A DNA stretch of 64,000 nt from Gammaproteobacteria bacterium (GCA_965215365.1 CBDCDS010000003.1:512001-576000), one strand, 5' to 3'; counted from the stretch's first letter, positions 4,273-20,013 are shown. The notes: generated by a model not told the origin, from the sequence alone. Numbers and translations are program-made.

Positions 4273-4371
4273 AGTTATACCCCTGTGCAAGCAGACAGGA
4301 TAACGGCATCATGTTACCGGATTTCGGCCTGTGTCGCATCCGCCATGGGATAGATTAATGATCAAACCGAA

Positions 4372-4710
4372 TTACAAGCCCATGACCAGCCTCAGCCCCG
4401 CATCCATCGCTGCAATATTCCGGGCGGATAACATGCCGACTCGCTCGGTCAGGAAGGATTTATCAACGGTGAGCACTTGCGACAGATTGAGCACAGAGTC
4501 TCTCGGCAGTCCGGCTTCGCGCTGTTTTAGTCGCACATTGCCTGGCGCTGCTGCCAAACGCAGATTTGAGGTAATAGTGGCAATGACCACTGTGTTGATG
4601 AGGCTTTCATTAAACTGGTTGCTCTGAACTATTGCAACTGGTCGCCGATAGCCTGGCCCGGCGCCTTGCGGAGTGGGGAGTGAGGCCCACCATACCTCGC
4701 CTCGACGCAC
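4372..4710 (-). CDS. MazF/PemK family endoribonuclease toxin
   Basis: RRGEVWWASL..PGYRRPVAIVQSNQFN...SVLNLSQVLTVDKSFL. Confidence 0.9.
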   Translation of the reverse strand: MRRGEVWWASLPTPQGAGPGYRRPVAIVQSNQFNESLINTVVIATITSNLRLAAAPGNVRLKQREAGLPRDSVLNLSQVLTVDKSFLTERVGMLSARNIAAMDAGLRLVMGL

Positions 4711-4946
4711 TACCAATCTTCCTGCGGCAATGATGCCCACTGCATCTCAGCCAAAGTATCATCAACGCGGGAGGTCTCTTTGACATAAACCATATCAAGA
4801 GTATCTCGCACCCTGTCTTGTTTGTGCGCCTCAATGTACTTTTCCAGTGCATGACGAAACAGTTCGCTTCTCGACATATCCAAGCGTTTGGCCAGTGCTT
4901 CGACGCTATCAAATAATGGATCAGGAATGGAAATTGCTGTCTTCAT
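4710..4946 (-). CDS. RHH/CopG antitoxin (MazE-like)
   Basis: MKTAISIPDPLF..LAKRLDMSRSELF; overlaps the toxin start. Confidence 0.85.
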   Translation of the reverse strand: MKTAISIPDPLFDSVEALAKRLDMSRSELFRHALEKYIEAHKQDRVRDTLDMVYVKETSRVDDTLAEMQWASLPQEDW

Positions 4947-4952
4947 GCATCA

Positions 4953-4972
4953 AGTATAACCTTAGTTATACT
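4953..4972. promoter_or_regulatory. Putative autoregulatory operator of the TA pair
   Basis: Perfect inverted repeat AGTATAAC-ctta-GTTATACT immediately upstream of the antitoxin ATG. Confidence 0.55.
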
Positions 4973-4987
4973 AAATTGTAAAGGTGG

Positions 4988-5109
4988 TGTCCAGGTTCAA
5001 TACATATGAGACTCAGAGGCAGGCTGTGTGAGTTAATCGAAATCACTTTACACACTTCACTACCCGATTTTTTGTCTATTCGAGTCTCACTTGTTGCTGA
5101 ACCCGGACA
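4988..5109. mobile_element. 122-bp MITE derived from the IS481-family element
   Basis: TGTCCAGGTTCAATACATATGAGACTC...GAGTCTCACTTGTTGCTGAACCCGGACA; same termini as the IS at 16297-17428, no transposase. Confidence 0.85.
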
Positions 5110-6496
5110 CCGCCATCGTATCTGCAAAGCTCAAGTGTTTGAGCAGGGCGTAATAATTGCGGATATTTTCCACAAACCGCACCGGTTCATCGCCCCTGGC
5201 AAAGCCGAAGCGCGTCTGTGAATACCACTTACGTTGCCTCAACAGCGGCAGGTTCTGTTTCACATCGACCCAGGCATCAGGGTTGCCGCCGTTCTTTTCG
5301 GTAATTGTTCTGGCATCTTCGAGGTGGCCGAAGCCGACATTGTAGGAGGCCAAAGCGAACCAGATGCGTTCCGGTTGCGGTATGCGCGCCGGCATTTTAT
5401 CCATCAGGGTAGCTAAATATCTGGCACCACCGTGGATACTCAGCACCGGGTCGAGACGGTCGCTGATACCAACCTGTTGCGCCGTTTGCAGTGTCAACAT
5501 CATCAGGCCGCGCACGCCGGTGGGTGAACGCGCGTTTTTTTTCCAATGGGACTCCTGATAACTGATGGCAGCCAACAGCCGCCAGTCAAAGCCAAGCTCG
5601 TTCCCCGCGCTCATAAAATAAGGCCTCAGCTCCGGCAATACCTCGTTGTAGCGATCGATGAAACTGCGCGTCTCAACGTAATCCAGCGAGTCCGCAAATT
5701 CATGGTCCTGTTCCAGCAGTACCGCCAGTTGGCCGTTGTCCCTGAGCTGTTGATGAAACTGTCGGATTGCCGTCATAAGCGAGTCGTCACCCGGCGCGCG
5801 TCTGACCGCCCAGCCCAGCGGCTCCGGGGCGCTCAGATTAAAGGCCACCCGCAGTTCCGGCAGGGAGATGCGCGCCCGGGCCACTTCGTGGGAACCCGCT
5901 ACCGCGTAGAGGATTTGACCGTGCTCTACCATTTCCAGCAGGCCGAAGCTGTCCTGCTCCTCATGCACTACCAGTTCTAGGTCCGGGGAATGGGAGCGCA
6001 GGCGTTCCAGATCCCCCGGCAGCAGGGCCTCGCCGGCGAGGTGCAGCTTGTGCGGAGCGACATCATCCAGCCTGGAGGGGCGTATGTAACCGTAACGGTA
6101 CACGACCTGCCAGGTCACCCACTGGAAACCTGGCCCATAAGCCAGCGGATCGCCCGGCGCCAAAGTCCGGTGCAGCCCGGCCGCGGCCAGGTCGGCCTGC
6201 CCGGACAGCAGCAGTTCCGTGACCTGCTTGCTGTCATCGGCCAGATTGAGTTTCAGGTCAACTTCCAGCCAGTCAGCGAACAGACTTGCCAGTTGATATT
6301 CCAGGCCGCGTTGTACGCCGGCGCCATTACGCTCATAAGTCGTCGGACTTACCACAGTGGCAACCTGCAGGGCGCCACGCGCACGGATCAACTCCAGTTG
6401 AGATTTTTCCTCAGCACAGCCCGACAGTAACAGGCAGACGCACAACCCCGGCAGCAACGGGAAGATTTTCGGTAACTGCTGCTTACGAACACGCAA
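5087..6496 (-). CDS. mltF: Membrane-bound lytic murein transglycosylase F
   Basis: Substrate-binding domain plus SLT domain (AISYQESHW, SPTGVRGLMMLT, ASYNVGFGH, ARGDEPV); both ends derive from foreign sequence. Confidence 0.9.
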   Translation of the reverse strand: MRVRKQQLPKIFPLLPGLCVCLLLSGCAEEKSQLELIRARGALQVATVVSPTTYERNGAGVQRGLEYQLASLFADWLEVDLKLNLADDSKQVTELLLSGQADLAAAGLHRTLAPGDPLAYGPGFQWVTWQVVYRYGYIRPSRLDDVAPHKLHLAGEALLPGDLERLRSHSPDLELVVHEEQDSFGLLEMVEHGQILYAVAGSHEVARARISLPELRVAFNLSAPEPLGWAVRRAPGDDSLMTAIRQFHQQLRDNGQLAVLLEQDHEFADSLDYVETRSFIDRYNEVLPELRPYFMSAGNELGFDWRLLAAISYQESHWKKNARSPTGVRGLMMLTLQTAQQVGISDRLDPVLSIHGGARYLATLMDKMPARIPQPERIWFALASYNVGFGHLEDARTITEKNGGNPDAWVDVKQNLPLLRQRKWYSQTRFGFARGDEPVRFVENIRNYYALLKHLSFADTMAVSGFSNK

Positions 6497-6586
6497 TAGA
6501 ATTGCATCCGGAAGAAAAGGAATTCAAGAAAGAGCTGGCCTTGTGGAAGAAAAATCTCGCGGCACAAACCCCTCCTCATTAACGAT
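6471..6586 (+). repeat. Near-identical direct copy of 9347-9462 (3' end of the AlbA/TPR gene plus overlapping nuclease 3' end)
   Basis: ggtaac..gcttacgaacacgcaatagaa..catccggaagaaaaggaattcaaga..ctggccttgtggaagaaaaatc present at both places. Confidence 0.9.
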
Positions 6587-7153
6587 ACTGGCACTGTCGC
6601 CGGTGGCGCGGATGGCAAACAAGCCCTGGCGGATGACATTCCGTTGCACGCTCTCATCGGCCTTGAGATACGCCATGGCGCCATGAATGACCTTGCCCTT
6701 GTAGTCCGGGAAACAGGTGGTAAATTCCGTCAGGTCTTCAAGGAAGTCCTTGACCCCCTCCGGGTGCAGCGTGGTTTTGACTTCCACGACCACCACCTGT
6801 TCACCGTTAATCGCCAAGATGTCGTACTCATAGTTTTTGCCGTCATTGAGACGATTGATACGACCGAGGCGGCGGCTTTTGGTCTTTTGCACAGGGATGC
6901 CCCGGTCTTGCAGCATGGCGACCAAGTCGCCTTCCACCAGGCTTTCCATGAACGCCCCCCACTGGTTATCGAACGTGCCTTGCAACTGCTTCATGCGCCG
7001 GTCGGTATGCTTCATCTCCTGGTAAGTTTCCTTCATCTGCCGGTCAGTCTCCTTCATGCGCCGGTCAGTTTCCTTCTGTGCCTCGGCCAATTCCTGCAAG
7101 CTGGCCCAGACCGTTTCAAACGTAGCGGGTTTACGCGGCAATTGTTTTTCCAT
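6524..7153 (-). CDS. Coiled-coil + PD-(D/E)XK nuclease-like protein (DUF3782-like), copy A
   Basis: KETDRRM heptads, then EYDILAINGEQVVVVEVK. Confidence 0.75.
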   Translation of the reverse strand: MEKQLPRKPATFETVWASLQELAEAQKETDRRMKETDRQMKETYQEMKHTDRRMKQLQGTFDNQWGAFMESLVEGDLVAMLQDRGIPVQKTKSRRLGRINRLNDGKNYEYDILAINGEQVVVVEVKTTLHPEGVKDFLEDLTEFTTCFPDYKGKVIHGAMAYLKADESVQRNVIRQGLFAIRATGDSASIVNEEGFVPRDFSSTRPALS

Positions 7154-7263
7154 GACAGATTCCTCCTTATCGGTTTGGTTGATAGTTAACAGCAGCAGCC
7201 GGCCATGGACAGCCGGCTCGTAACAATACTAATGTACACGGGGTGAAAAAGCAAAGGGAAACT
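7154..7263 (-). repeat. Conserved ~110-bp leader of the coiled-coil nuclease cassette (also 14246-14355, 15180-15272, 16191-16296)
   Basis: gacagattcctccttatc...gtacacggggtg near-identical in 4 copies; contains AAGGAGG SD on the minus strand. Confidence 0.9.
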
Positions 7264-7460
7264 TCATTTTAGTCTCTTACGCCGCATCGATGAAATCCAG
7301 ACTTTTGAATGCCGGGGTCCCATTATCTTAAGACGATACCAGAAGGGTAAAAACCCGTTTCCTGCGTTTGGCGGATATTGTTATAATTCGGTACCATGCA
7401 ACTTCAATTCCGGTGTGGGAAACAAGGTGCGAATAGTCTTGCCTTCCACCTGCGCATGAT

Positions 7461-9458
7461 ATGAGTATTATTCTTCCAATCAATATAGAAGACCTGCTGC
7501 ACTGTCAGGGCGTAGAGTCTTCCCGCATTGAATTCAAGGCAGGCTGGGATGACGAAACAACGGGTGTTCAGGTTTTGAAAACGATATGCGCGTTTGCCAA
7601 TGACCTGCAAAACCTGAATGGCGGGTATATCATCATCGGCGTTGAGGAACGTGAGGGCCGCGCAGTTCTTCCTCCCAAGGGCATAGCACCGGGAAAAATA
7701 GATTACATACAGAAATGGATCAGAGGCAATTCAAATCGTATTGACCCGGAATTTCAGCCGGTGATGTCGCTGGAAGTTGTGTCGGGTAAGCATATCCTGA
7801 TTATCCGGGTGCCAGGGAGTAATGTACGGCCCCACAGAGCGCCGGAAGCTAACAGGGGAGGGGAAAGAAAATACTTTGTGCGCATTGGTTCCGAAACAGT
7901 GGATGCGGATAAAAATGGCGTCCTTGATGAGCTGATGCAGCTTACCGCCAAAGTACCCTTCGACGACCGTAGAGCGCTTCAGGCAACCACAGATGACCTG
8001 CGAGAAAGCAGGGTCAGGGAGTTTCTCAACGATATCCGCAGCGGTCTGTTGGAAGAGGAGAATACGAGAGAAATTTACCGAAAACTCCGCATTACTTCAT
8101 CTGCGAATGGCCATGATGTCCCCAAGAATATAGGCCTGCTGCTGTTCAGTGAAGACCCGGATATCTGGTTCCCGGGCACGCGTATTGAGGTCGTTCAATT
8201 TGCCGGTGATGCGTCGGGAAACATCATAGAGGAAAAAATATTTCGCGGTGGCATACATGAACAATTAAAAAATGCCTTGACTTTCCTGGAAACCATTTCC
8301 AGTCCGCACCTGGAGAAACAGGAACGTTCTTTCAGAGTGAAAGGGTGGGTCAGTTATCCGGTCCAGGCTCTGCGCGAGGCGCTTGTGAATGCCGTTTATC
8401 ATAAAAGCTATGAGCCATCGCTACAGGAGCCGGTCAAAGTCTATTTGTATCCGGGCCGTATGGAAATTACCAGTTACCCGGGACCGGTACACGGCATAGA
8501 ACCTGCACACTTTCATCCGAATTCTTCGGTGCCTTCTGCACCTGCCAGGAACAGGCGCATAGGTGAGTTTCTGAAGGAACTGCGTCTTGCTGAAGGCCGC
8601 GGCACAGGGTTGCCAAGAATTTACCGGGCAATGCAGGAAAACGGATCGCAGGCTCCCTCGTTCGACTTCGACCAGGGGAGAAGCTACTTTCGGGTAACGC
8701 TTCCCGCACACCCGGAATATATCGCCATTTCCGCCCTGAGAGATGCCGCCCACCTCAAGGCTCTGGGCAATGATGCCGATGCCTTCAGGCGCATCGAAAA
8801 TGCGTGGAAATCCCTTCCTGCTTCACCTTCGCTCACTGCGGAATACATCCGCCTGCTTGGCGCAAATGAACAACTTGAGGCCGCGCAAACAGCATTCTCG
8901 GAATTTAAGCAACAGGCGCCGGACAACTTTCACCATTTTGTTTCCAATGTCCTGATAGATATCCTGTTGGATGCCGGGCGCAAAGATGAGGCAAAAAAAT
9001 TGCTGGATCGCCAGCCCGCGTATCTGGCGAGTGCCGATGCCATGGACGCGGCCATCCTCGCTCGGCGGCTCCGCAACGAGGAAAAAGCCCACCGCTACTT
9101 TGAACGCGCCGGCGATGTCGTATTCAACGACATTCGCGCATTACACGAATTTGCTCAAGCAAAAATCAAACTGGCGCAGAAAACACCGAGAAACCGCCAA
9201 GGGCGTCAGCCATACTTGCGCCTGTTACGCGAAGCAAAAGAGTTGCTGGAACGTGCTGTGCAGATGGATGCCGGCCGAGTGCGTCATGCTTGGGCGTGGA
9301 GAGATTTAGGCAGGGTTAAAAAATGGCTGAAACATCCCACACACGAGGTAACCGCCGCTTACGAACACGCAATAGAACTGCATCCGGAAGAAAAGGAATT
9401 CAAGACAGAACTGGCCTTGTGGAAGAAAAATCCCGCGGCACAAACCTCGCATCATTAA
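7461..9458 (+). CDS. Schlafen/AlbA_2 + HATPase_c_4 + TPR-like protein
   Basis: ESSRIEFK, ICAFAN..GGYIIIGV, ALREALVNAVYHKSY, RNRRIGEFLKELRLAEGRGTG; helical-repeat C-terminus. Confidence 0.85.
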   Translation: MSIILPINIEDLLHCQGVESSRIEFKAGWDDETTGVQVLKTICAFANDLQNLNGGYIIIGVEEREGRAVLPPKGIAPGKIDYIQKWIRGNSNRIDPEFQPVMSLEVVSGKHILIIRVPGSNVRPHRAPEANRGGERKYFVRIGSETVDADKNGVLDELMQLTAKVPFDDRRALQATTDDLRESRVREFLNDIRSGLLEEENTREIYRKLRITSSANGHDVPKNIGLLLFSEDPDIWFPGTRIEVVQFAGDASGNIIEEKIFRGGIHEQLKNALTFLETISSPHLEKQERSFRVKGWVSYPVQALREALVNAVYHKSYEPSLQEPVKVYLYPGRMEITSYPGPVHGIEPAHFHPNSSVPSAPARNRRIGEFLKELRLAEGRGTGLPRIYRAMQENGSQAPSFDFDQGRSYFRVTLPAHPEYIAISALRDAAHLKALGNDADAFRRIENAWKSLPASPSLTAEYIRLLGANEQLEAAQTAFSEFKQQAPDNFHHFVSNVLIDILLDAGRKDEAKKLLDRQPAYLASADAMDAAILARRLRNEEKAHRYFERAGDVVFNDIRALHEFAQAKIKLAQKTPRNRQGRQPYLRLLREAKELLERAVQMDAGRVRHAWAWRDLGRVKKWLKHPTHEVTAAYEHAIELHPEEKEFKTELALWKKNPAAQTSHH

Positions 9459-9918
9459 CGATGCCGATAGCGTCGTCTGTGGCGTGGATGACAAACAACC
9501 CTTGCTGTTCCGCATGTGCCTGTATGACCTCGTCCACGTTGAGGTACGCCACTGCCCCGTGGATCTTCTTTCCAACGAAGGGTGTCGCATGGGGCGGGAA
9601 CTTCTCCATGCTCTCAATAAAGAGTGCCAATAGCTCGGCGCACGAATCGAAGAACAGTTGTGTTACCACCACTTCTTTGTCGCCATAGGCTATGGGGTCA
9701 TCGTATCCAAAACTGACCCCGCCGGATGAACCGTGCATGCCACCTATGCCTCTAGGCAGAAACATGCCACGGGTAGCCATCAAAGCCTCGAGGTCTCCTT
9801 CCCTCAGGCTTTCTCTCAACAGATCTATCTCGGCCGGATAATTACATATTCTCCGCTCGTAATAGGTTGGTTTCACCCCCAAATCACTCGTCTTGAAATG
9901 TCTCTCAATTTTTTTCAT
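9400..9918 (-). CDS. Diverged coiled-coil nuclease paralog, copy B (probably inactive)
   Basis: ESLREGDLEALM, HGAVAYL and GLFVIHATDD..VN..FVPRDF align to copy A; the EVK motif is replaced by TQL. Confidence 0.6.
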   Translation of the reverse strand: MKKIERHFKTSDLGVKPTYYERRICNYPAEIDLLRESLREGDLEALMATRGMFLPRGIGGMHGSSGGVSFGYDDPIAYGDKEVVVTQLFFDSCAELLALFIESMEKFPPHATPFVGKKIHGAVAYLNVDEVIQAHAEQQGLFVIHATDDAIGIVNDARFVPRDFSSTRPVLS

Positions 9919-10023
9919 ACACTATTCCTCCCACTGGCGCTTAACAACACCAAAATTAACGCATATGCAATAGAAGGTAAAGAAAAATTTGCATACTTAA
10001 AAATTCCCCGGTAAGTTGTAATC

Positions 10024-11178
10024 ATGGAAGCGCAGCAGCCAAATATCCCTGTTGACGAGCAGGATGTTGAAGGTTTGGACACCCAAGGCGGCTCTTGGGG
10101 GGATTACCCCATTGATGCGCTCTTGATCCGGCATGAAACACGAACTGTCTTCGATGTTATACGGCGGATCGACAAAGGCAGTTACGTCATGGACCCTGAC
10201 TTCCAGCGAGATTTCATCTGGCCTGAGGATAAGCAAAGCAAACTCATCGAATCTGTGCTTATGCGGATTCCTCTGCCGGTCTTCTACTTGGCGGAGGACG
10301 GGGAAGGGCGTATGATAGTCGTAGATGGCCTGCAACGTCTGGCGACATTCAGGAACTTCACATCCGACGGTCTGAGACTACGCCTCCCGGACCGCCCCGA
10401 CCTGAATGGCAAAAAGTTCACCGACCTAGAGCCCAAATTCCAAAATCGCATCGAAGACTGTAACCTGATTTTTTACATCATTGATTCCAAAGCCCCTGAA
10501 CGCGCGCGCTTGGATATCTTTGATAGGGTCAACAGCGGTGTGCCGCTCAAGCCACAACAGATGCGCAACAGTTTGTTCATGGGGCCCGCAACTCTTTTTC
10601 TCAAAAATGAGGCAAAAACCGATATATTCCTGAAGGCGACAGGCGGGAGCCTGAATACAAAAACCATGCGCGACCGGGAATTTGTCAACCGCTTCTGTGC
10701 TTTCCAGCTATTGGGACCGGATAAGTACCGTGGCGATATGGATGTCTTTCTTGCGCGCTGCCTGCGCTACATGAACAGCATAAGTGAAACCGATTTGGCC
10801 CGGTTATCCACAGAATTGCGCAGGAGCCTTGCCAATAACTATTTGTTATTCAGACTACGAGCTTTCAGAAAGCACCCTTCGGAATTGCTTTGGCGAAGAG
10901 GCGTGCTCAACGCGTCGCTCTGGGACGTTATGTCCACCGGCCTGTCCCGTTACCCGGAAGCAAGCGTAAGCACTCATGCGAAACGCTTGAAGGAGGCTGT
11001 TCGTGATCTGTCTAAAGATGAGCGATTCAATGACGCAATCTCCATTGGCACAAACGATACCAGAAGGGTGAAGACCCGGTTCGATATGACGCGTGAAATT
11101 CTCGAGGATATTCTCGGTCCCCAAACAACCGGTTTTGCAACCGACCTGGTCGCTGATTCAGATTCAAATTTTTCTTAA
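10024..11178 (+). CDS. DUF262/ParB-like protein (Menshen NsnA-like)
   Basis: PDFQRDFIW, LIESVLMRIPLP, VVDGLQRL, IFDRVNSG. Confidence 0.85.
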   Translation: MEAQQPNIPVDEQDVEGLDTQGGSWGDYPIDALLIRHETRTVFDVIRRIDKGSYVMDPDFQRDFIWPEDKQSKLIESVLMRIPLPVFYLAEDGEGRMIVVDGLQRLATFRNFTSDGLRLRLPDRPDLNGKKFTDLEPKFQNRIEDCNLIFYIIDSKAPERARLDIFDRVNSGVPLKPQQMRNSLFMGPATLFLKNEAKTDIFLKATGGSLNTKTMRDREFVNRFCAFQLLGPDKYRGDMDVFLARCLRYMNSISETDLARLSTELRRSLANNYLLFRLRAFRKHPSELLWRRGVLNASLWDVMSTGLSRYPEASVSTHAKRLKEAVRDLSKDERFNDAISIGTNDTRRVKTRFDMTREILEDILGPQTTGFATDLVADSDSNFS

Positions 11179-11189
11179 GGAGGTTAAAC

Positions 11190-12347
11190 ATGCTTACAGG
11201 GATAGACCTGAAACATTTCAAATGCTTCAAGTTATTGAAGCTGCCGTTAACCCCCCTGACCTTGCTTACCGGCGCCAACGCCTCTGGCAAGTCATCGATC
11301 ATCCAGGCCTTGGCACTGCTGCATCAGACCATGCGGGGACATGAGTGGTCCAAGCGTCTAATGCTCAATGGCGACACAGTAAGGCTTGGCGCCGTAGTCG
11401 ATGTAATAGACAAGGTTTACGGACGCAACTCCTGCGCTCTTGCCCTGCTGGATCGCGCAGCATATTGCAGGTGGGAATTTGCCGGGGAGCGGCACGCTAT
11501 GTCGATGGCAGTAAAATATGTCGGTGTCAGTGGCGTCGAAGTCATTGAAGAACCGGAGCCAGAAATGCTGCACCACCTGTTGCCTGAGACGGCGCGTCAA
11601 TATACTCACGGGTTAATCGAGAGTCTGCTCGGGCTTACTTATCTCACTGCAGAGAGGTTGGGCCCGCGTGAATATTATCCGCTAGAAGACTTCCAACTTG
11701 CGCCTGTTGTCGGACCAAGAGGTGAGTATGCCGTGAGCGCGCTCTATTCTGGTGGTGATGAACACGTTCTTGATGAGTTAGTGGTCGAGGAGCAACCGCC
11801 GACGCGGTTGCGTCAGACAGTAGCAAGAATGAACCATTTCTTCCCAGGTTGTGATTTAATGATAAACAAGGTTCCAAACGCCAATGCTGTAACGTTAGGA
11901 CTTCGCACCTCCGGTGATGCGGATTTCCATCGGCCTGTTCATACGGGATTCGGGTTGACCCAAGTACTCCCGATTATTGTAGCGGCCCTGTCCGCAGGGA
12001 AGGATAATTTGCTGTTAATCGAGAACCCAGAAGTACACCTCCACCCCGCAGGACAAGCAATGATGGGTGAATTTCTGGCCGAAGTAGCCGCGGCCGGCGC
12101 GCAGGTCATTCTGGAAACCCATAGCGACCATATATTGAATGGGGTCAGAAAAGCAGTGAGGAAGAAAAAATTATCCCCCGACGCCGTTGCCCTGCATTTT
12201 TTCCTGCCGCGCCAGGAGTGTGAAGAAAAAGGCGCTGCACAGGTACAAAGTCCGGTTATGGACACAGATGGAAATATCGATACTTGGCCGGATGGTTTTT
12301 TTGACCAGTTCGACAAGGACATGAACTACTTCGCTGGGTGGGGTTGA
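11190..12347 (+). CDS. AAA_21/DUF3696 ABC-type ATPase (Menshen NsnB-like)
   Basis: Walker A GANASGKS, GFGLTQVLP, LLIENPEVHLHP, ETHSDH, WPDGFFDQ. Confidence 0.85.
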   Translation: MLTGIDLKHFKCFKLLKLPLTPLTLLTGANASGKSSIIQALALLHQTMRGHEWSKRLMLNGDTVRLGAVVDVIDKVYGRNSCALALLDRAAYCRWEFAGERHAMSMAVKYVGVSGVEVIEEPEPEMLHHLLPETARQYTHGLIESLLGLTYLTAERLGPREYYPLEDFQLAPVVGPRGEYAVSALYSGGDEHVLDELVVEEQPPTRLRQTVARMNHFFPGCDLMINKVPNANAVTLGLRTSGDADFHRPVHTGFGLTQVLPIIVAALSAGKDNLLLIENPEVHLHPAGQAMMGEFLAEVAAAGAQVILETHSDHILNGVRKAVRKKKLSPDAVALHFFLPRQECEEKGAAQVQSPVMDTDGNIDTWPDGFFDQFDKDMNYFAGWG

Positions 12348-12348
12348 C

Positions 12349-13311
12349 ATGGAGCTGTTCGCAAATGATCTTTCAATTCACCGACAATTTCGTGACATAT
12401 CATCGTTTCGTAAATCGTTGCAGGGACTTATGGATATGCGTGCCACTGCGAAGCGTTTCAGCCGGGAGGTATATTGCCATCGGGCGTTCTTGAATGCTGA
12501 GCCATTGCCTGGAGTGCCGATGCAACAAGCCTTGGGGCAACTTCGCGAAAGCGAACGGCGAGCCACGATCAATTGGCTGACGCGTGGTGGTCCCTTTTGG
12601 GATGATTATCGTCTCCACAGCGGCGACGACTGGTTGGAATGCCGAGGGGAAGTGGTAACTGACTCAGCCATAGGAGAAGCAGCGTATCGCAAACTTCACA
12701 ATGATGCTGAGAGTGGTTTGGTCAGCGTAACCCCATCCAAATGGAATTCCTCTCCCGTGGAAGTAATTTGGAGGCGGGAGGGCGAGGGGTTCGAAGACCA
12801 AAACACAGCACTCGAAAATTGGTGGGATGTCACTGCACTGGAAAACAATTTGCAGAATGCCCCGCTACCGATCAGGTCGTGGGATGATTTGCAATCGGCC
12901 TCAATCAGCCGCTTTCAAAGGCTGACTTTTGCTGGCGATTGCTTTGAGCCACTTTCCGGAGTTCCGTTCGCGAAGAGTTCGATGGAACGCATACTTGAAC
13001 TTTTCAAGACACTAAATCGCTATGCAAGCGCCTTTGATGCGGCTGGCAAACGCACCCCCGAAGGTCAACAGACTTACCAGAACTTCTTCACAGGGGGCGA
13101 GAACGCGTTGTTTTCCGATTCGACTGATCGAGAGAAAAGGGATTTTCGTAATGAGTTGACCTTCAAGCATCCGGACGACCCTGAAAAATCCTTGTTTTGT
13201 CCGTGGCATGGCAAGGAACGCCACAAAGTTTTGCGGTTACATTTTTCCTGGCCCATCCGGTTCCGTGAACCGGTTTATGTTGTATATGTCGGTCCGAAAA
13301 TTACCAGATAG
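12349..13311 (+). CDS. Hypothetical protein, putative effector (Menshen NsnC-like)
   Basis: Third tightly spaced gene of the DUF262-DUF3696 operon; C-terminal WHGK..RLHFSWP..YVVYVGPK. Confidence 0.55.
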   Translation: MELFANDLSIHRQFRDISSFRKSLQGLMDMRATAKRFSREVYCHRAFLNAEPLPGVPMQQALGQLRESERRATINWLTRGGPFWDDYRLHSGDDWLECRGEVVTDSAIGEAAYRKLHNDAESGLVSVTPSKWNSSPVEVIWRREGEGFEDQNTALENWWDVTALENNLQNAPLPIRSWDDLQSASISRFQRLTFAGDCFEPLSGVPFAKSSMERILELFKTLNRYASAFDAAGKRTPEGQQTYQNFFTGGENALFSDSTDREKRDFRNELTFKHPDDPEKSLFCPWHGKERHKVLRLHFSWPIRFREPVYVVYVGPKITR

Positions 13312-13344
13312 TAAGACAGGCATGCTCCCCTCCATCGAAATAAG

Positions 13345-13575
13345 GAAAAGATTCGCGCGGGTAATTCCAACATTCGCAATCCGATTCTTGTTTCCTATGT
13401 AGCCAAGGGCCTGCTCCCGTATCACGGCCTTGGTTCCGGTATCAAACGCGCCCTAGAAGCATGGCCGCATATCGATTTCACGGATGACCGGGACGCTTGC
13501 CTGTTTACCGTAACCGTTCACCGCAAACAGGCAGCACTCACCCAAACACCCGCGGCACAAACCCCTCCTCATTAA
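13345..13575 (+). pseudogene. 3' fragment of a second AlbA/HATPase_c_4 gene
   Basis: Manual translation EKIRAGNSNIRNPILVSYVAKGLLPYHGLGSGIKRALEAWPHIDFTDDRDACLFTVTVHR; no start codon. Confidence 0.7.
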
Positions 13576-14245
13576 CGATACTGGCGCTGTCGCCGGTGGC
13601 GCGGATGGCAAACAAGCCCTGGCGGATGACATTCCGTTGCACGCTCTCATCGGCCTTGAGATACGCCATGGCACCATGAATGACCTTGCCCTTGTAGTCC
13701 GGGAAACAGGTGGTAAATTCCGTCAGGTCTTCAAGGAAGTCCTTGACCCCCTCCGGGTGCAGCGTGGTTTTGACTTCCACGACCACCACCTGTTCACCGT
13801 TAATCGCCAAGATGTCGTACTCATAGTTTTTGCCGTCATTGAGACGATTGATACGACCGAGGCGGCGGCTTTTGGTCTTTTGCACAGGGATGCCCCGGTC
13901 TTGCAGCATGGCGACCAAGTCGCCTTCCACCAGGCTTTCCATGAACGCCCCCCACTGGTTATCGAACGTGCCTTGCAACTGCTTCATGCGCCGGTCGGTA
14001 TATTTCATCTCCTGGTAAGTTTCCTGCATCAGTTGCTCAGTCTCCTTCATGCGCCGATCGGCTTCCCGGGCATTTTCCTTCATGCGCCGATCGGCTTCCC
14101 GGGCATTCTCTTTTATAAGCCGCTCAGTTTCCCGGGCATTCTCTTTTATAAGCCGCTCAGTCTCCTTCTGCATCTCGGCCAATTCCTGCAAGCTGGCCCA
14201 GACCGTTTCAAACGTAGCGGGTTTACGCGGTAATTGTTTTTCCAT
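13538..14245 (-). CDS. Coiled-coil + PD-(D/E)XK protein, copy C
   Basis: Near-identical to copy A, with 11-aa KENARE(T/A)(E/D)R(LI/RM) repeats. Confidence 0.75.
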   Translation of the reverse strand: MEKQLPRKPATFETVWASLQELAEMQKETERLIKENARETERLIKENAREADRRMKENAREADRRMKETEQLMQETYQEMKYTDRRMKQLQGTFDNQWGAFMESLVEGDLVAMLQDRGIPVQKTKSRRLGRINRLNDGKNYEYDILAINGEQVVVVEVKTTLHPEGVKDFLEDLTEFTTCFPDYKGKVIHGAMAYLKADESVQRNVIRQGLFAIRATGDSASIVNEEGFVPRVFG

Positions 14246-14504
14246 GACAGATTCCTCCTTATCGGTTTGGTTGATAGTTAACAGCAGCAGCCGGCCATGG
14301 ACAGCCGGCTCGTAACAATACTAATGTACACGGGGTGAAAAAGCAAAGGGAAACTCCAGAGTCCGAAAGTCCTGCTGTTCCGCCTCTCAATAAAGTGCGT
14401 TTCGACGTTGTATAAGCATATCAAGCACCAATAAGAAGTCAGGCCGTTGCTTACTTGATTGCGCGCCCTGCTGCGCCGGATCAACGTTAACGGCTGCGTA
14501 ATGC

Positions 14505-15179
14505 TCACCCAAACACCCGCGGCACAAACCCCTCCTCATTAACGATACTGGCACTGTCGCCGGTGGCGCGGATGGCAAACAAGCCCTGGCGGATGACATT
14601 CCGTTGCACGCTCTCATCGGTCTTGAGATACGCCATGGCGCCATGAATGACCTTGCCCTTGTAGTCCGGGAAACAGGTGGTAAATTCCGTCAGGTCTTCA
14701 AGGAAGTCCTTGACCCCCTCCGGGTGCAGCGTGGTTTTGACTTCCACGACCACCACCTGTTCACCGTTAATCGCCAAGATGTCGTACTCATAGTTTTTGC
14801 CGTCATTGAGACGATTGATACGACCGAGGCGGCGGCTTTTGGTCTTTTGCACAGGGATGCCCCGGTCTTGCAGCATGGCGACCAAGTCGCCTTCCACCAG
14901 GCTTTCCATGAACGCCCCCCACTGGTTATCGAACGTGCCTTGCAACTGCTTCATGCGCCGGTCGGTATATTTCATCTCCTGGTAGGTTTCCTTCATCAGT
15001 TGCTCAGTCTCCTTCATGCGCCGGTCAGTTTCCCGGGCATTTTCTTTCATGCGCCGGTCAGTTTCCCGGGCATTCTCTTTTATAAGCCGCTCAGTCTCCT
15101 TCTGCATCTCGGCCAATTCCTGCAAGCTGGCCCAGACCGTTTCAAACGTAGCGGGTTTACGCGGCAATTGTTTTTCCAT
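14505..15179 (-). CDS. Coiled-coil + PD-(D/E)XK protein, copy D
   Basis: As copy C with one fewer 11-aa repeat (224 vs 235 aa). Confidence 0.75.
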   Translation of the reverse strand: MEKQLPRKPATFETVWASLQELAEMQKETERLIKENARETDRRMKENARETDRRMKETEQLMKETYQEMKYTDRRMKQLQGTFDNQWGAFMESLVEGDLVAMLQDRGIPVQKTKSRRLGRINRLNDGKNYEYDILAINGEQVVVVEVKTTLHPEGVKDFLEDLTEFTTCFPDYKGKVIHGAMAYLKTDESVQRNVIRQGLFAIRATGDSASIVNEEGFVPRVFG

Positions 15180-15305
15180 GACAGATTCCTCCTTATCGAA
15201 TTTGGTTGATAGTTAACAGCAGCAGCCGGCCATGGACAGCCGGCTCGTAACAATACTAATGTACACGGGGTGGCGAGGTAAAGAGGAAATTTACAAATAC
15301 AGCGC

Positions 15306-16190
15306 TCACTCAAACACCCGCGGCACAAACCCCTCCTCATTAACGATACTGGCGCTGTCGCCGGTGGCGCGGATGACGAACAGGCCCTGGCGTTCTGCAT
15401 GTGTTTTGGCAGCCTTGCTGGTTTTGAGGTAGGCCATCGCCCCGTAAATCGTCTTGCCCCGATGTTCCGGTTCGTAATACGTGTATTTGAGCAGTTTTTT
15501 CAGAAAGTGCTTGATGTCCGCCGCACACAAGGTGGTCTTCACTTCCACCACCACCACTTCTACCCCGTTAATCGCCACAATGTCAAACTCGAAGTCCTCG
15601 CCGTTGCGCTTGCCATAAGGCCTGGGATGGATGCGATCTACCAGAATATCCCGGCGTTGCAGCAGGGCTACGAGGTCACCCTCGACCAGGCTTTCCATGA
15701 AGTCACCCCAACGGTTGTCAAACCGGCCTTGCATCCTGTTCAGGCTTTTGTCCAGGCGCTGATCAGCCTCTTTCATCTGCCGGTCGGAGTCACGGGTCAT
15801 TTTGTCCAGGCGCCGGTCGGTCTCTTTCATCTGCCGGTCGGAGTCACGGGTCATTTTGTCCAGGCGCCGGTCGGTCTCTTTCATCTGCTGGCTGGTCTCT
15901 TTCATCTGCTGGCTGGTCTCTTTCATCTGCTGGCTGGTCTCTTTCATCTGCTGGCTGGTCTCTTTCATCTGCTGGCTGGTCTCTTTCATCTGCTGGCTGG
16001 TCTCCTTCACCAGCCGGTCGGTTTCCTTCACCAGCCGGTCAGTGTCCTTCATGCGCCGGTCAGTGTCCTTCATCTGCTGGCTGGTCTCCTTCACCACCCG
16101 CTCAGTCTCCTTCTGCATCTCGGCCAATTCCTGCAAGCTGGCCCAGACCGTTTCAAACGTAGCGGGTTTACGCGGCAATTGTTTTTCCAT
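15306..16190 (-). CDS. Coiled-coil + PD-(D/E)XK protein, copy E
   Basis: Same N- and C-termini as C/D, different nuclease core (EFDIVAINGVEVVVVEVK), long heptad array. Confidence 0.75.
   Translation of the reverse strand: MEKQLPRKPATFETVWASLQELAEMQKETERVVKETSQQMKDTDRRMKDTDRLVKETDRLVKETSQQMKETSQQMKETSQQMKETSQQMKETSQQMKETSQQMKETDRRLDKMTRDSDRQMKETDRRLDKMTRDSDRQMKEADQRLDKSLNRMQGRFDNRWGDFMESLVEGDLVALLQRRDILVDRIHPRPYGKRNGEDFEFDIVAINGVEVVVVEVKTTLCAADIKHFLKKLLKYTYYEPEHRGKTIYGAMAYLKTSKAAKTHAERQGLFVIRATGDSASIVNEEGFVPRVFE
15769..16002. repeat. In-frame tandem repeats: 54 nt x2 and 21 nt x6
   Basis: tctttcatctgctggctggtc x6 (15877-16002, KETSQQM); 54-nt unit x2 (15769-15876). Confidence 0.9.
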
Positions 16191-16296
16191 GACAGATTCC
16201 TCCTTATCGGTTTGGTTGATAGTTAACAGCAGCAGCCGGCCATGGACAGCCGGCTCGTAACAATACTAATGTACACGGGGTGAAAAAGCAAAGGGA

Positions 16297-17428
16297 TGTC
16301 CAGGTTCAATACATATGAGACTCAGAGGCAGGCTGTGTGAGTTGTTGATAATACTCCATTGGGGTTAATAAACCAATACCGTTATGCGGGCGGTAGGTAT
16401 TGTAGTATTGCTGATACTCTGCCAGTTTGCGGTTGATGGCGGCCACGGTCAGTGGACCCTCGTAGAACGGATAGAACTCATAGCGGCTGGTGGCGTTGGC
16501 GCGTTCTACACAGCCGTTGTATTCGGGTTTTTTCGGGGGCAGCACGTACAGGGGGATTCCTAAGTCCTGGCAAGCCTGCTCGAACTCATCTCGGAACTCC
16601 GAGCCGCCATCGACCTGGATAGAACGGATGGGAAACGGCGCCTCACCGAGCAGCGCTTTTAAGAAGCGCCGGGCATTGCCACTGGTGGCCCGACTGTAGG
16701 CTCGCAGCGCACTCCATTTGCTCACCGGACAGACGGCCTTGAACTCCTTCACCGTGATGCCGTCCGTGAAGCCGACACTCATGTGGTCTATCTGCATCAA
16801 CTCCCCTGGCGCCTTAGCCTTCATCCCGTAGCGCCAGCGCTTGGCATGATGGGTAAACGCCCGGCGGCGCTTAGGCTTCACCCGGCCATAGTAAAACGCC
16901 ACCGGCTTGACCCGACCCAGCCGCACCAGCTTCGCCACGATGCGCCCGACCGTACTCTCGCTCAAAGTCCAGCCCTGCTCGCGCACCCCCACCCGCCAGA
17001 GCTTACGCTTACCCCATAACGGATAACGTTGGCGAAGGTGCAAGACCTGCTGCTCGTGCTGGCGCGTCCATTGCGGCACACGCCGCCGCCGCGGCGCACG
17101 AGAGCCACACCCCAGACCCTTCAGCCCATGTTCACGATACCGCTTCAACCAACGGTAGTAGGTCGCCCTCGACCAACCTACTGCTGCCAGTGCCGTCGCC
17201 TCACCACACCCATCCTCGCGTAACGTCGCAACCAATTCCAACTGCTTCAAACGACCGCGCGCGTCAGCATCGGTAGTATCATCGACGCGCCAACTGCGAT
17301 ATGATTTCACCCGCAGGCTTTTGATCTGCATCGGGTAGTCCTCCTGTGTCAATTAGTTGAGATTAATTCACACACAGACTACCCGATTTCTTTATCTAAA
17401 GAGTCTCACTTGTTTCTGAACCCGGACA
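16297..17428 (-). mobile_element. IS481-family insertion sequence (1132 bp)
   Basis: TGT...ACA termini with imperfect IRs (TGTCCAGGTTCA / TGAACCCGGACA); single HTH + DDE ORF; no TSD seen. Confidence 0.85.
16306..17331 (-). CDS. IS481-family DDE transposase
   Basis: SRATYYRW HTH; ELMQID, IQVDGGSEF and NGCVER catalytic motifs; YNTYRPH. Confidence 0.9.
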   Translation of the reverse strand: MQIKSLRVKSYRSWRVDDTTDADARGRLKQLELVATLREDGCGEATALAAVGWSRATYYRWLKRYREHGLKGLGCGSRAPRRRRVPQWTRQHEQQVLHLRQRYPLWGKRKLWRVGVREQGWTLSESTVGRIVAKLVRLGRVKPVAFYYGRVKPKRRRAFTHHAKRWRYGMKAKAPGELMQIDHMSVGFTDGITVKEFKAVCPVSKWSALRAYSRATSGNARRFLKALLGEAPFPIRSIQVDGGSEFRDEFEQACQDLGIPLYVLPPKKPEYNGCVERANATSRYEFYPFYEGPLTVAAINRKLAEYQQYYNTYRPHNGIGLLTPMEYYQQLTQPASESHMY

Positions 17429-17435
17429 TCATGAC

Positions 17436-17789
17436 ATGCTGATCATGACCGAAGAAACCTTTGCGCCGATATTGCCGGTGATGGCCTTCGACACCGATGA
17501 GCAGGCTGTGGAACTGGCCAATGATACGATCTTCGGCCTGTCTGCGGCCGTGTTTGCCAACGAGGCCGAGCGCGCCCGGGGTATCGCCGCCAGACTGGAG
17601 GCCGGCGCAGTCAGTATTAACGACGCAGCTTTGACCAGCGTTATGCACGAAGGTGAGAAGCAGGCATTCAAGGCCTCCGGCATGGGCGGCTCACGCATGG
17701 GGCCGGCTTCCATCAACCGTTTTCTGCGGGCCAAGGCGCTGCTTGAGAATACTCAAGGGGCTTGGGACCCGTGGTGGTTCCCCACTTAG
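17436..17789 (+). pseudogene. Aldehyde dehydrogenase C-terminal fragment
   Basis: EETFAPILPV, LANDTIFGLSAAVF and GAVSIND motifs; 5' part absent at the IS edge. Confidence 0.85.
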
Positions 17790-17802
17790 CGTTGTGCAAG
17801 CC

Positions 17803-18105
17803 TCACCACTGCCTACCGCCCACCCAGCTACCGACTACGCCTTTGAACTCCTGTATGCGGACTTCCTGCCAGAGACCGGCCTGGTAGTAGGGGTCGGCCT
17901 GGAGCATGGCGGTCGCCTCGGCAACACTGTCCACCTCGAAGATCAGCAAGCTGGCCACCGGCTCTGCACCAGCGGCTCCCATGACCGGCCCGGCCACCTT
18001 GATCCGGTCCTCAATGGTTTCAATATGCCGCAGATGCTCTTGCAACCCGCGCCGGCGGATGTCAGCGCCTCCTTGTACATCTTTGCAATAAACAGATACC
18101 AGCAT
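17803..18105 (-). CDS. YciI family protein
   Basis: R..L.EHLRH, VAGP, ADPYYQAGLW. Confidence 0.85.
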   Translation of the reverse strand: MLVSVYCKDVQGGADIRRRGLQEHLRHIETIEDRIKVAGPVMGAAGAEPVASLLIFEVDSVAEATAMLQADPYYQAGLWQEVRIQEFKGVVGSWVGGRQW

Positions 18106-18121
18106 GATGCCCCCTGTCGAT

Positions 18122-18345
18122 TTATCTGTATTGGAAAAACAAGGCCGGACTGAGGTTAAATCGCTTGCTCAAGGCTTCAATGTGATCGCGTGTAAGACGA
18201 CGCTCACCGCGTAATATCCTGGATACCAGCGATTTGCTGCCAATTTCAGGCAGATCCGCCATGCCGAGTCGGTGTTGTTCCATAATGACTTTCAGCGTCG
18301 CTATGCCACTATCAAGCTTTTTAACTTGCTCATTAAACAACTTGA
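18122..18345 (-). pseudogene. HigA-type HTH antitoxin, C-terminal fragment
   Basis: LKVIMEQHRLGMADLPEIGSKSLVSRILRGERRLTRDHIEALSKRFNLSPALF. Confidence 0.75.
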
Positions 18346-18350
18346 ACTGA

Positions 18351-18548
18351 ATGCCGCCGAACCTGCGCCGGGCACACCAGACCCTCGACCGCGCCATAGA
18401 CCGCCTCTACCGTCACTCAGGCTTCGCCTCCGAACGCGAACGCGTCGAACACCTGTTCATGCTTTATGAGAAAATGCGGGTGCCGCCGGAAGTTAGTGTG
18501 AACGATAATTCGAAGCGGCATCGAGCAAGACATCCTTTAACAGAATAA
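18351..18548 (+). pseudogene. C-terminal remnant of an MmeI-like type IIL restriction-modification enzyme
   Basis: MPPNLRRAHQTLDRAIDRLYR..F.SERERVEHLFMLYEKM resembles the MmeI-family terminal helix motif. Confidence 0.7.
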
Positions 18549-18582
18549 GGCTACGATAAGGTAACCCCTAAAAAGGGGCATT

Positions 18583-18999
18583 TCATGCAACTCTCAATAT
18601 GCTTGACGAACCCGGGTCAATGGCGGCAAGCAGTTCATCGAATTTCTCTATCGTGGGAATACTTTTTCCGGTTTCATAACGGCCATAAGCATTGGGAGAT
18701 GACTGCCCCAGCCGGTCGGCGACCTGCCTGATGCTGAGGCCATTATCAACCCTCTTTTGCCGTAGGACCATAGCGAGTATCGGCCCTATCTTATTAGGAA
18801 TAACAAAAAAACTGTTATTTTGCCCCGGTTCGATAGTGACCTTGAACCCCTCAAGCTCGACAACGAGTTCAATGGCCTCTTGTGCCATTTCATAGGCTTC
18901 TTTTTTAGTTCTCCCCTGAGTAAATATGCCAATTTCGGGAATATCAACCCCCCATATCTTTTCACCTGCTTTTTTTTCCAGTTTTCCTTCAATCTTCAT
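18583..18999 (-). CDS. HicB family antitoxin with XRE HTH
   Basis: IPEIGIFTQGRTKKEAYEMAQEAI plus LSIRQVADRLG..AYGRYETG. Confidence 0.85.
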   Translation of the reverse strand: MKIEGKLEKKAGEKIWGVDIPEIGIFTQGRTKKEAYEMAQEAIELVVELEGFKVTIEPGQNNSFFVIPNKIGPILAMVLRQKRVDNGLSIRQVADRLGQSSPNAYGRYETGKSIPTIEKFDELLAAIDPGSSSILRVA

Positions 19000-19186
19000 C
19001 AGCGCTACTCCCGATAATTTTTCTGACCTGATTAATGATAGCCCTTGCCGTGCCTTCCCTGATTTCCCGGTGTCTTGGGACGGGGAATTTATAACTTCCC
19101 TTGCCCCATATTTCATGCCTCCGGCCCTCTCTTTCAAGTTTGCACCCGAGCTTCCCAAGAACTTTTTCCAACTCTTTTTTCTTCAC
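18989..19186 (-). CDS. HicA family toxin
   Basis: KELEKVL..G..REGRRHEIW...VPRHREI.EGTARAI. Confidence 0.85.
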   Translation of the reverse strand: MKKKELEKVLGKLGCKLEREGRRHEIWGKGSYKFPVPRHREIREGTARAIINQVRKIIGSSADED

Positions 19187-19332
19187 CGGGTGTTGTACAC
19201 AATATTGTGGATAAAGTCAATCGTTCGTTCGGGCCGCCCTTGATATCAGGCACCGCAACAGTCAGTCAGTTCAGGTTGTCACCAGTTCTGATGACATCGC
19301 GATGTCTGCATGGAGTTATTGCCTGAACATCT

Positions 19333-19981: not shown

Positions 19982-20013
19982 GTGGCTTAATATACCATAT
20001 AGCCGCAGACTAG

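Follow-up and report, generated by a model that had tools for sequence, protein, structure and literature searches.

This study was concerned with an array of five paralogous genes, designated A to E, in a 64,000-nucleotide stretch of DNA from a Gammaproteobacteria bacterium (GCA_965215365.1, CBDCDS010000003.1:512001-576000), the whole of which is referred to here as the window. All five open reading frames (ORFs) are present on the minus strand and together span window positions 6524-16190, in agreement with a preliminary description of the sequence that had reported five same-strand paralogs. The array proteins are members of a widespread family in which a DUF3782 coiled-coil stalk is carried on a DUF8196/Hjc-like PD-(D/E)XK domain. 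The preliminary description viewed each gene and the leader upstream of it as one cassette of a self-propagating, integron-like system or as a recombination scaffold, with the intervening genes as cargo. The features of the array and its borders are listed below by window position and strand. Positions given with C3 are on the source genome (G000), in which some of the pieces listed are also found at a second locus.

Organization of the array

4988..5109, plus strand: insertion sequence (IS) remnant of the IS481 family; two ends only, with the interior deleted; adjoins mltF
5087..6496, minus strand: mltF-like lytic transglycosylase; SLT and SBP_bac_3 (Pfam)
6471..6582, plus strand: Schlafen-TPR gene remnant (3' end), overlapping copy A at its 3' end
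6524..7153, minus strand: copy A, 209 amino acids; C/D-type body and B-type C-terminal tail (..PRDFSSTRPALS)
7154..7264, minus strand: leader of A; AAGGAGG ribosome-binding site, 8-bp GC hairpin and presumed promoter
7461..9458, plus strand: cargo 1, Schlafen-TPR gene, 665 amino acids; SLFN_AlbA_2, HATPase_c_4 and TPR (Pfam)
9400..9918, minus strand: copy B, 172 amino acids, degenerate
10024..13311, plus strand: cargo 2, complete Menshen operon (PADLOC)
10024-11178, plus strand: nsnA; NsnA E 3.4e-110 (PADLOC)
11190-12347, plus strand: nsnB; NsnB E 1.5e-101 (PADLOC)
12349-13311, plus strand: nsnC; NsnC E 3.9e-114 (PADLOC)
13321..13527, plus strand: remnant of a second Schlafen AlbA_2/HATPase_c_4 gene; amino acids 316-384, 87% over 69 amino acids (tblastn)
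13538..14245, minus strand: copy C, 235 amino acids; one 11-residue unit longer than D
14246..14355, minus strand: leader of C; 100% over 110 nucleotides (blastn)
14356..14504, no strand: C-D spacer, 149 nucleotides from the D stop to the C leader; also present at the second locus
14505..15179, minus strand: copy D, 224 amino acids; protein identical to the copy at C3 307759-308433
15180..15292, minus strand: leader of D; 92% identical to the other leaders
15306..16190, minus strand: copy E, 294 amino acids; ten 21-nucleotide stalk units and 2.6 units of 54 nucleotides
16191..16296, minus strand: leader of E; cut at 106 nucleotides by IS insertion
16297..17428, minus strand: full IS481-family element; transposase at 16306-17352 (NCBIfam transpos_IS481, E 4.6e-53)
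17428..17980, plus strand: duplicate of an aldehyde dehydrogenase 3' end, 98%; Aldedh profile positions 362-460; the full gene copy adjoins the second locus

The DNA between the copies had been described as unrelated each time, and this was found to be so. It consists of the Schlafen-type gene, the Menshen operon with a gene fragment, and two short spacers, the second of which (D-E) is 13-33 nucleotides long, depending on the choice of leader start. The operon is a full Menshen set, with nsnA, nsnB and nsnC all present and contiguous on the plus strand. The gene fragment next to it, at 13321-13527, was present as described and could be identified as the last ~69 codons of a second Schlafen-type gene. 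Cargo 1 has partial matches to N-terminal modules associated with prokaryotic Argonautes (PADLOC), and its 3' end overlaps that of copy B by 59 nucleotides. A repeat finder showed that window 6471-6628 is 87% identical to 9347-9504, and amino acids 630-665 of the Schlafen-TPR protein match the remnant at 6471..6582 at 89% (tblastn). Positions 1-47 and 1048-1132 of the full IS map onto the remnant at 4988..5109 (blastn).

Protein family and predicted structure

A database search identified 2718 homologues at E<=0.001, many of which carry PF26618 and Hjc. PF26618 is present in proteins that share 45-68% identity with A (E 1e-55 to 1e-71). The nearest atlas clusters are named DUF8196/DUF3782, and PF26618 is DUF8196 according to the atlas; the DUF8196 type of the nuclease domain was assigned indirectly, through the PF26618 matches of the homologues and these clusters. 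The array proteins themselves gave only sub-threshold Pfam matches, to DUF3782, Hjc and AHJR-like models. For example, A scored 19.9 bits against DUF3782 (PF12644), under the cut-off of 24.4, and that model had no match in B, C, D or E at E<=0.01. The stalk repeats here are of a different heptad type from those of the DUF3782 model. A, C and D scored 18.4-18.5 bits against Hjc (PF01870), under a cut-off of 21.1 that some homologues pass. PADLOC matched only the nuclease part of CARF-nuclease models to the array proteins.

The AlphaFold model of A has a mean predicted local distance difference test score of 83.4 and consists of a 72-residue helix (residues 12-83) followed by an alpha/beta PD-(D/E)XK core. 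Its best Foldseek matches were the NucS repair endonuclease, Can2, Cdn1, AF1548 and Hjc; an SduA structure was among the weaker matches, at rank 10. Searches of solved structures by sequence returned only designed coiled coils, which matched the stalk. The preliminary description was right in comparing the core with DUF3782-type restriction-fold proteins, as the PF26618 and Hjc matches of the homologues, the AlphaFold fold, the Foldseek matches and the atlas clusters all agree.

In an alignment of 42 sequences, E109, D111, E124 and K126 are invariant. The catalytic D ... E-x-K residues are found in A, where they read D..E-V-K, and in C, D and E, and they are absent in B, in which T-Q-L replaces E-x-K. 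Copy B also has no leader and no stalk. A single 375-aa protein was the only longer or fused form detected, which indicates that the family stands alone. The active copies (A, C, D and E) are probably self-associating DNA nucleases whose catalytic domains are held on a rigid stalk. The most likely role would be that of a defence or selfish nuclease encoded by a single gene, comparable to stand-alone PD-(D/E)XK defence nucleases such as Shedu.

Several known proteins resemble the array proteins in part. The DUF3782/DUF8196 endonucleases (PF12644, PF26618) have the same architecture, a long N-terminal helix and then an Hjc-like D..E-x-K domain, although the array proteins score under the local Pfam cut-offs. 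The fold and catalytic motif also match those of Hjc (PF01870), the C-terminal domain of NucS/EndoMS, the nuclease domain of Can2/Card1/Cdn1, and AF1548. However, a stalk of 60-140 residues in the array proteins replaces the sensor or dimerisation domains of the Hjc/NucS/Can2 type. Hjc is a single domain of ~120-140 amino acids, whereas the active array copies carry the stalk in addition. Unlike Can2/Card1/Cdn1, the array proteins have no CARF domain and no link to clustered regularly interspaced short palindromic repeats (CRISPR). Shedu (SduA) is alike in logic only, as a stand-alone PD-(D/E)XK nuclease with a variable N-terminal part that is found in defence islands; its nuclease family differs, and PADLOC gave no Shedu match.

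The only paper found to mention the family is that of Hartmann et al. (2016, eLife 5:e11861; PMC4786415), which groups under DUF3782 a set of prokaryotic PD-(D/E)XK endonucleases whose N-terminal part is a coiled coil. Like the bacterial members in that paper, the array proteins have heptads and no nonads in the stalk. Full-text literature searches with DUF3782, DUF8196 and PF26618 returned no paper on the function, copy number, arrays or genomic setting of the family.

Stalk lengths

Coiled-coil length had been said to vary by exact units of 21, 33 or 54 nucleotides, and Tandem Repeats Finder recovered these three periods in the stalk-coding DNA. They correspond to 7, 11 and 18 residues, which in coiled coils are the heptad, the hendecad and their sum. 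Both conserved tryptophans were identifiable in 104 of the 121 homologues, and in all 104 their spacing equals 28+7a+11b residues. The spacing modulo 7 is 0 in 42 homologues, 4 in 42, 1 in 14, 5 in 3 and another value in 3. Since the homologues are mutually related, and about half of the integers from 0 to 60 are expressible as 7a+11b, the rate expected by chance for the excess over 28, this is a strong pattern and not a formal test. The related proposal that repeat slippage tunes the stalk is thus borne out as a pattern of register-keeping steps of 7, 11 or 18 residues, but not as an observed process.

A conserved variable spot in related genomes

The array sits in a conserved variable chromosomal spot that extends from an RTX-repeat gene to mltF. 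The frame of this spot is RTX gene, family copies, a 413-aa gene, (methyltransferase), mltF, msrB and cysG, and parts of it are common to five related loci. The RTX gene, family copies, 413-aa gene and mltF are all present in three of these loci (L049 of genome G006, L052 and L121), and all elements but the RTX gene are present in the other two (L050 and L061). Comparing cargo between relatives had been suggested as a check in the preliminary description; the five loci at the same spot hold one to four copies and different inserts, as follows.

L121: RTX gene present; one family copy; no inserts
L052: RTX gene present; four family copies in tandem; AAA_14-DUF4143 gene
G006/L049: RTX gene present; two family copies and a B-like copy; Schlafen (399 amino acids) and AAA_15 pair
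L061: no RTX gene; two family copies; ankyrin and AAA_21/DUF4276 genes
L050: no RTX gene; one family copy; AAA_15 ATPase gene and ankyrin gene beside the copy

The left border of the spot is mltF, which adjoins the array in all five related loci and has 94% nucleotide identity to its counterpart in G006, the nearest relative. The flanks of the spot in G006 are 89-94% identical to those in the window and the interior differs. The order of elements is the same as in the window, namely an E-like copy, a D-like copy, the Schlafen-399 and ATPase pair and a B-like copy, and G006 is without A, C and Menshen. The E-like and D-like copies of G006 are spaced like an operon: the D-like copy has no leader and starts 17 nucleotides past the E-like stop.

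Remnants at the junctions record how the cargo was exchanged. The second Schlafen gene is intact in G006 at the same position (L035:12739-13938), and its last 69 codons survive next to C in the window. At the tail of the intact gene, G006 has ~85 nucleotides of a paralog 3' end. A piece of the Schlafen-TPR tail lies next to a B-type 3' end in both the window and G006. These remnants indicate that the exchange cut through genes and used no fixed site.

The Menshen operon was found in 3 of the 41 genomes searched. It is complete between B and C in the source genome. In G003 (L051 6224-7818) a degraded Menshen lies between two family copies and on the same strand as them; a full NsnA is followed immediately by NsnC residues 169-320, with no NsnB. 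Its junctions and orientation differ from those in the source genome. The third genome, G001, has a complete Menshen with no family copy within ~8 kb. In 12 other arrays, 35 ORFs lie between family copies, of which 13 have a Pfam match. About 6 of the 13 are defence-like or toxin-antitoxin-like (AAA_22, HicB-like, DUF4276, AAA_21, GmrSD_N and PIN), and 7 are not (an outer-membrane protein, TraF_2, Kelch, ankyrin, ferredoxin, and FtsX and ABC_tran of an ABC transporter). Thus, defence cargo is common but not the rule.

Leaders and unit boundaries

A leader of 111 nucleotides was found by blastn at six places genome-wide, upstream of A, C, E and D and at C3 307649 and 308583. It is 100% identical in A, C and E, over 111, 110 and 106 nucleotides, and 92% identical over 113 nucleotides in D. 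The preliminary description had noted a near-identical leader and first 24 codons in four copies, and over this region A, C, D and E are indeed 95-100% identical. The repeat finder recovered a 91-nucleotide upstream block in four copies, plus common 3' parts. When 140 upstream nucleotides of 14 copies from six genomes were aligned, the leaders were alike within a genome and unlike between genomes, and only the region of the ribosome-binding site was common. A search of window 4500-17600 against Rfam at E<=1 gave three sub-threshold rows at chance level and none at the gathering score. As a structured RNA, the leader had a z-score of -0.40 against shuffled sequences, with a single 8-bp hairpin standing out. 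We infer that the leader comprises the ribosome-binding site and 5' untranslated region that belong to the gene itself, presumably with its promoter, and that it was copied along with the gene.

The motif that had been taken as a 3' boundary is the conserved C-terminal coding end of the genes (..GFVPRVFE/G stop), read on the opposite strand. The downstream remnants that travel with the copies are 66 to 207 nucleotides long. No inverted repeats were found at the unit ends; 16 inverted pairs were detected in 6300-16400, and the recurring ones lie inside the nuclease-coding part.

These results bear on the integron-like platform proposed earlier, in which leader and gene form a discrete cassette with fixed boundaries that carries cargo and is inserted and excised site-specifically. 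The near-identical leader in four copies and at two places elsewhere in the genome would fit such a platform, as would cargo that differs between the copies and copy number and cargo that differ between related genomes. However, a Pfam scan of 36 window ORFs over 1-34 kb (13 + 23) found no tyrosine or serine recombinase, and only the DDE transposases of IS481 and IS66. The statement that no integrase is in view therefore holds for tyrosine recombinases, but a DDE transposase with an integrase-core (rve) domain, that of IS481, abuts the leader of E. The unit ends are without attC-type inverted repeats, and the 3' extents are unequal among copies. The cargo is on the plus strand with its own signals, while the paralogs are on the minus strand. 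A, C, D and E each have their own leader with a ribosome-binding site, and no common promoter was seen. In addition, the leader is not the same from one genome to another and is absent from one ortholog, and breakpoints within genes have left truncated Schlafen and NsnC genes. On this sequence evidence the integron-like model passes none of its defining tests and is largely refuted, and we regard it as very improbable.

A repeat seen at some leader edges in the relatives, GGGTGTCCYGRATTW, was considered as a cassette boundary and was rejected, as it is a general intergenic repeat of the relatives resembling repetitive extragenic palindromic (REP) sequences. It had 124 matches in the loci, only 10 of which are within 300 nucleotides upstream of a family gene, and only 4 approximate matches in the source genome. 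This REP-like repeat of 15-17 nucleotides forms dense arrays in many intergenic regions of L050, L052, L061, L113 and L121.

Mosaic copies, selection and the second locus

Several copies are mosaics. Copy A is a chimera in which a C/D-type body is joined to a B-type tail. The leader and first 24 codons of E are 100% of the A/C type, and its nuclease part is only ~70% identical to that of D. In the copy at C3 2620978, a 5' module shared with the copy at 153636 (89%) is followed by an E-type nuclease module. At the second locus, E' (G000 C3 308693-309085) is a natural stalk-less variant of 130 amino acids, in which a 7-nucleotide microhomology, ATGGAAA, joins the leader and start codon directly to the nuclease domain and the whole stalk is deleted.

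The copies also differ in age. C and D have 98.4% nucleotide identity and a rate of synonymous substitutions (dS) of 0.058. A, C and D are recent (dS 0.06-0.08) and younger than the split from G006, as the D ortholog there has a dS of 0.16. D and its G006 ortholog have 93.6% nucleotide identity and a ratio of nonsynonymous to synonymous substitutions (dN/dS) of 0.28, and E and its ortholog, which has a 195-aa product, have a dN/dS of 0.20. Both values indicate purifying selection. Copy B is kept in G006, with 83% nucleotide identity over 547 nucleotides (blastn) and 76% over the aligned codons, and its dN/dS of 0.67 indicates relaxed selection.

The second locus adjoins the RTX gene that borders the array in G006. 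Window segments 14239-15272, 15302-15700, 16297-17428 and 17428-17980 match it at 98-99%; for example, 14239-15272 is 99.1% identical to C3 308699-307667. The pieces in common are D with its spacer and leader, the nuclease part of E, an IS481 copy and the aldehyde-dehydrogenase tail. These matches indicate that the array was split and partly duplicated by recombination involving the paralogs and IS481.

The IS481-family element is 1132 bp long and is present in 26 full copies in the 2.7-Mb genome. It was considered as a carrier of the family and was rejected. An IS481 piece is found within 500 bp of four of ten family clusters, where 0.8 would be expected, but three of the four come from one segmental duplication and are therefore not independent evidence. 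A composite transposon formed by IS481 was also rejected, as the left element is a 122-nucleotide remnant and G006 has mltF and the array without an IS481-like match. In contigs of two runs, window 5696 (within mltF) is connected to the IS end on the opposite strand, which may be an IS insertion polymorphism.

An assembly artefact, in which the copies would be collapsed or mis-joined reads of one or two genes, was also considered. The copies share long identical stretches at which short-read contigs break. However, the contigs extend into A and C at their 3' ends and include the whole of B; the copies differ diagnostically in their tails and stalk units and in the divergent nuclease part of E; and the B-, D- and E-type copies of G006 are ordered as they are in the window. 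In addition, contigs of X1, X3 and X5, which come from three samples and two studies, agree at every position with 5066-6571 and 7241-13566, so the unique parts did not arise from errors in the source assembly. We therefore consider this explanation hardly credible.

In X6, one low-depth contig (depth 6.4, 95% alike) joins 6444 to 7446 and leaves out copy A. X6 gave no cover of 9587-12088 or 12506-13339, a depth of 1.19 in the bin 12089-12505, and almost none over Menshen. The X6 contig is a weak hint of a variant strain.

Distribution of the family

The 2.73-Mb source genome has 19 family ORFs. Subfamily 1 accounts for 11 of these, including the five of the array. Subfamily 2 comprises 8 copies at 6 loci, all outside the window, with products of 177-226 amino acids that are 24-28% identical to A and have TDAQLAK heptads; copies differ in stalk length by whole heptads.

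Subfamily 2 copies, G000 C3: 765095, 911208, 912315, 913506, 1698556, 1925477, 1928124 and 2293382

Family matches were found in 19 of 22 congeners, at 1-33 per genome. In a species-representative collection, at least 531 of at least 543 candidate stretches encode a relative, and the relatives among the matches listed are from Gammaproteobacteria, Thermoanaerobaculia, Ca. Multivorans, Spirochaetia, Bacteroidales, Bdellovibrionales and Methanospirillum. For neighbourhood analysis, 74 loci were kept with 8 kb on either side. Of these, 51 hold a single copy and 23, from several phyla, hold 2-9 copies. No conserved partner gene was found; the largest neighbour cluster, of TPR proteins, is present in 9 of the 74 loci. 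The Schlafen gene as a partner of the nuclease was rejected, as its only match among the 829 neighbour ORFs of these loci was G006's own gene.

These neighbourhoods are relevant to the idea of a cooperative repertoire, in which the paralogs would act as one system, for example as mixed oligomers whose stalk lengths set reach or specificity, with the cargo incidental. The recurrence of same-strand arrays in several phyla is consistent with this idea. Neighbouring copies differ in stalk length with the register strictly kept, D and E are old paralogs that are both under purifying selection, and the two copies of G006 are operon-like in spacing. However, the majority of the loci are single-copy, as is one related genome at the same spot, the nuclease domains of A, C and D are nearly identical and these copies appear to be recent duplicates, and B is degenerate. 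A cooperative repertoire thus seems improbable.

Subfamily 2 had no match at E<=1e-20 in the 22 congeners, and 4 copies at 58-61% identity are present in a genome of another family. Its absence from the congeners and its 8 copies here indicate a recent acquisition followed by a burst. The subfamily 2 units have 38 to >160 nucleotides upstream and ~50 nucleotides downstream in common, and this variable common flank indicates that the unit ends vary. Two dispersed copies sit at synteny breaks with G006, where their flanks map to different places, so that G006 offers no empty site for comparison.

A selfish nuclease could account for such a pattern. It would make cuts within or close to its own locus, or in related sites, and repair of the break would copy the gene in a homing-like or Rpn-like way, build arrays and trap foreign DNA. 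PD-(D/E)XK enzymes that act as transposition or recombination-promoting nucleases, such as TnsA and Rpn, are known. The subfamily 2 burst favours this explanation, together with gene-sized dispersed units that have only ~40-160 nucleotides of upstream and ~50 of downstream flank, the position of the two copies compared with G006 at synteny breaks or variable spots, the presence of Menshen inside family arrays and the sharp edge of the leader. However, the unit ends vary from copy to copy, and the 1.2-kb duplicate pair 969918/980020 showed neither terminal repeats nor target duplications. Searches of phages, plasmids and viral contigs matched no family member. Purifying selection and old orthologs at a fixed spot would fit a host gene equally, and the 26 IS481 copies are an alternative source of rearrangement. 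On balance, we judge this explanation unlikely, if the most plausible of the alternatives.

Neighbouring features

Beyond the array, the island extends over window 17400-28000, where genes for a helix-turn-helix protein, a TumE/HVO_A0114 pair and an IS66 transposase are found together with AAA_14-DUF4143 and GmrSD_N-domain genes. A MazE/MazF-like pair is located at 4372-4946, near the IS481 end remnant. Window 4347-5107, which holds this pair and the remnant, has no counterpart at the syntenic site of G006, which indicates an insertion in the source lineage. Plus-strand antisense ORFs encoding 181-275 amino acids lie opposite A, C, D and E (6644-7189, 13637-14233, 14604-15209 and 15399-16226) and are a by-product of repeat composition. 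An element of ~245 nucleotides at L040 4937-5183 (G000 C3 ~154.4 kb), beside the family copy at 153636, has many matches of 76-98% across G006 and is a dispersed repeat.

Interpretation of the locus

Our interpretation, to which we assign a probability of about 0.7, is that the array is a lineage-specific tandem expansion by duplication and recombination in a hotspot, and that the protein is a defence or selfish nuclease. Duplication would make the copies, and gene conversion and unequal crossing-over would keep them partly alike. Much of the recombination would fall in the repetitive stalk-coding DNA, where it would reshuffle 5' modules (leader and N-terminus) with 3' modules (nuclease domain) and shift stalk length by a register-keeping 7, 11 or 18 residues. 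The homology of the repeated copies would make the spot unstable, and the Schlafen-type gene and Menshen may have entered and been replaced through ordinary imprecise recombination. IS481 activity may then have split the array and partly duplicated it to the second locus.

The earlier idea of a scaffold that gains and loses cargo survives in part. Copy number and cargo vary at the spot, copies are mosaic, and Menshen or a remnant of it lies within arrays in two of the three genomes that have it, but the fixed, self-propagating cassette does not stand, as there is no tyrosine recombinase, no attC-like site and no constant end, and the cargo is on the opposite strand.

Several points weigh against a tandem expansion of this kind. 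First, the family clearly proliferates, and the subfamily 2 burst leaves room for a mobile or self-promoted route. Secondly, the 5' edge of the leader is sharp (106-113 nucleotides in six copies), with IS481 exactly at the edge in E, which a passive model does not predict. Third, the promoter in the leader is presumed, and a promoter scan called no sigma-70-like site in any leader. In addition, two of the three genus genomes with Menshen carry it, whole or as a remnant, between family copies, a placement that exceeds chance and is a hint of targeting or co-transfer. For the repeated copies, the order C-D-E rests on one assembly, a point that speaks for an artefact as well. Lastly, the nuclease activity, oligomeric state and defence role of the proteins are predictions.

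Comparison with known systems

The array resembles integron arrays in being a one-orientation row of units whose content varies between related genomes. It differs from them in having no IntI, attC or common promoter; what is repeated is a whole gene together with its leader, the cargo is on the other strand and the ends are imprecise. Defence islands, or variable hotspots bordered by conserved genes, are a general concept with which the locus also shares features. The borders (RTX gene and mltF) are conserved, toxin-antitoxin modules and IS elements lie alongside, and defence genes turn over, with Menshen and Schlafen-TPR here, Schlafen and an AAA_15 ATPase in G006 and AAA_14-DUF4143 in another genome. 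However, this spot is built around tandem copies of one resident family, and the breakpoints fall beside or inside the copies. Uma2/DUF820 and Rpn/YhgA (PDDEXK_2) are likewise stand-alone multicopy nuclease-fold genes that are often in tandem, and we know of no mechanism by which they spread. They are likened here by description only, as they belong to different families and the stalk of the array proteins is N-terminal.

Significance

For annotation, the locus is a warning that a repeated unit of leader plus gene with varied intervening DNA need not mean a cassette system. It also raises the questions of whether the protein is a single-gene defence or a selfish nuclease, and whether the presence of the family makes a locus recombinogenic. 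If the selfish-nuclease explanation were true, the family would found or remodel defence islands without an integrase or transposase, and it would be an undescribed self-propagating, recombination-promoting gene whose quantised stalk sets the geometry of cutting. The family is large and almost unstudied, with thousands of homologues in bacteria and archaea and up to 33 matches per genome, and this locus shows that known defence systems come and go at the spot, that the copies recombine with one another and that the stalk is held to coiled-coil quanta.

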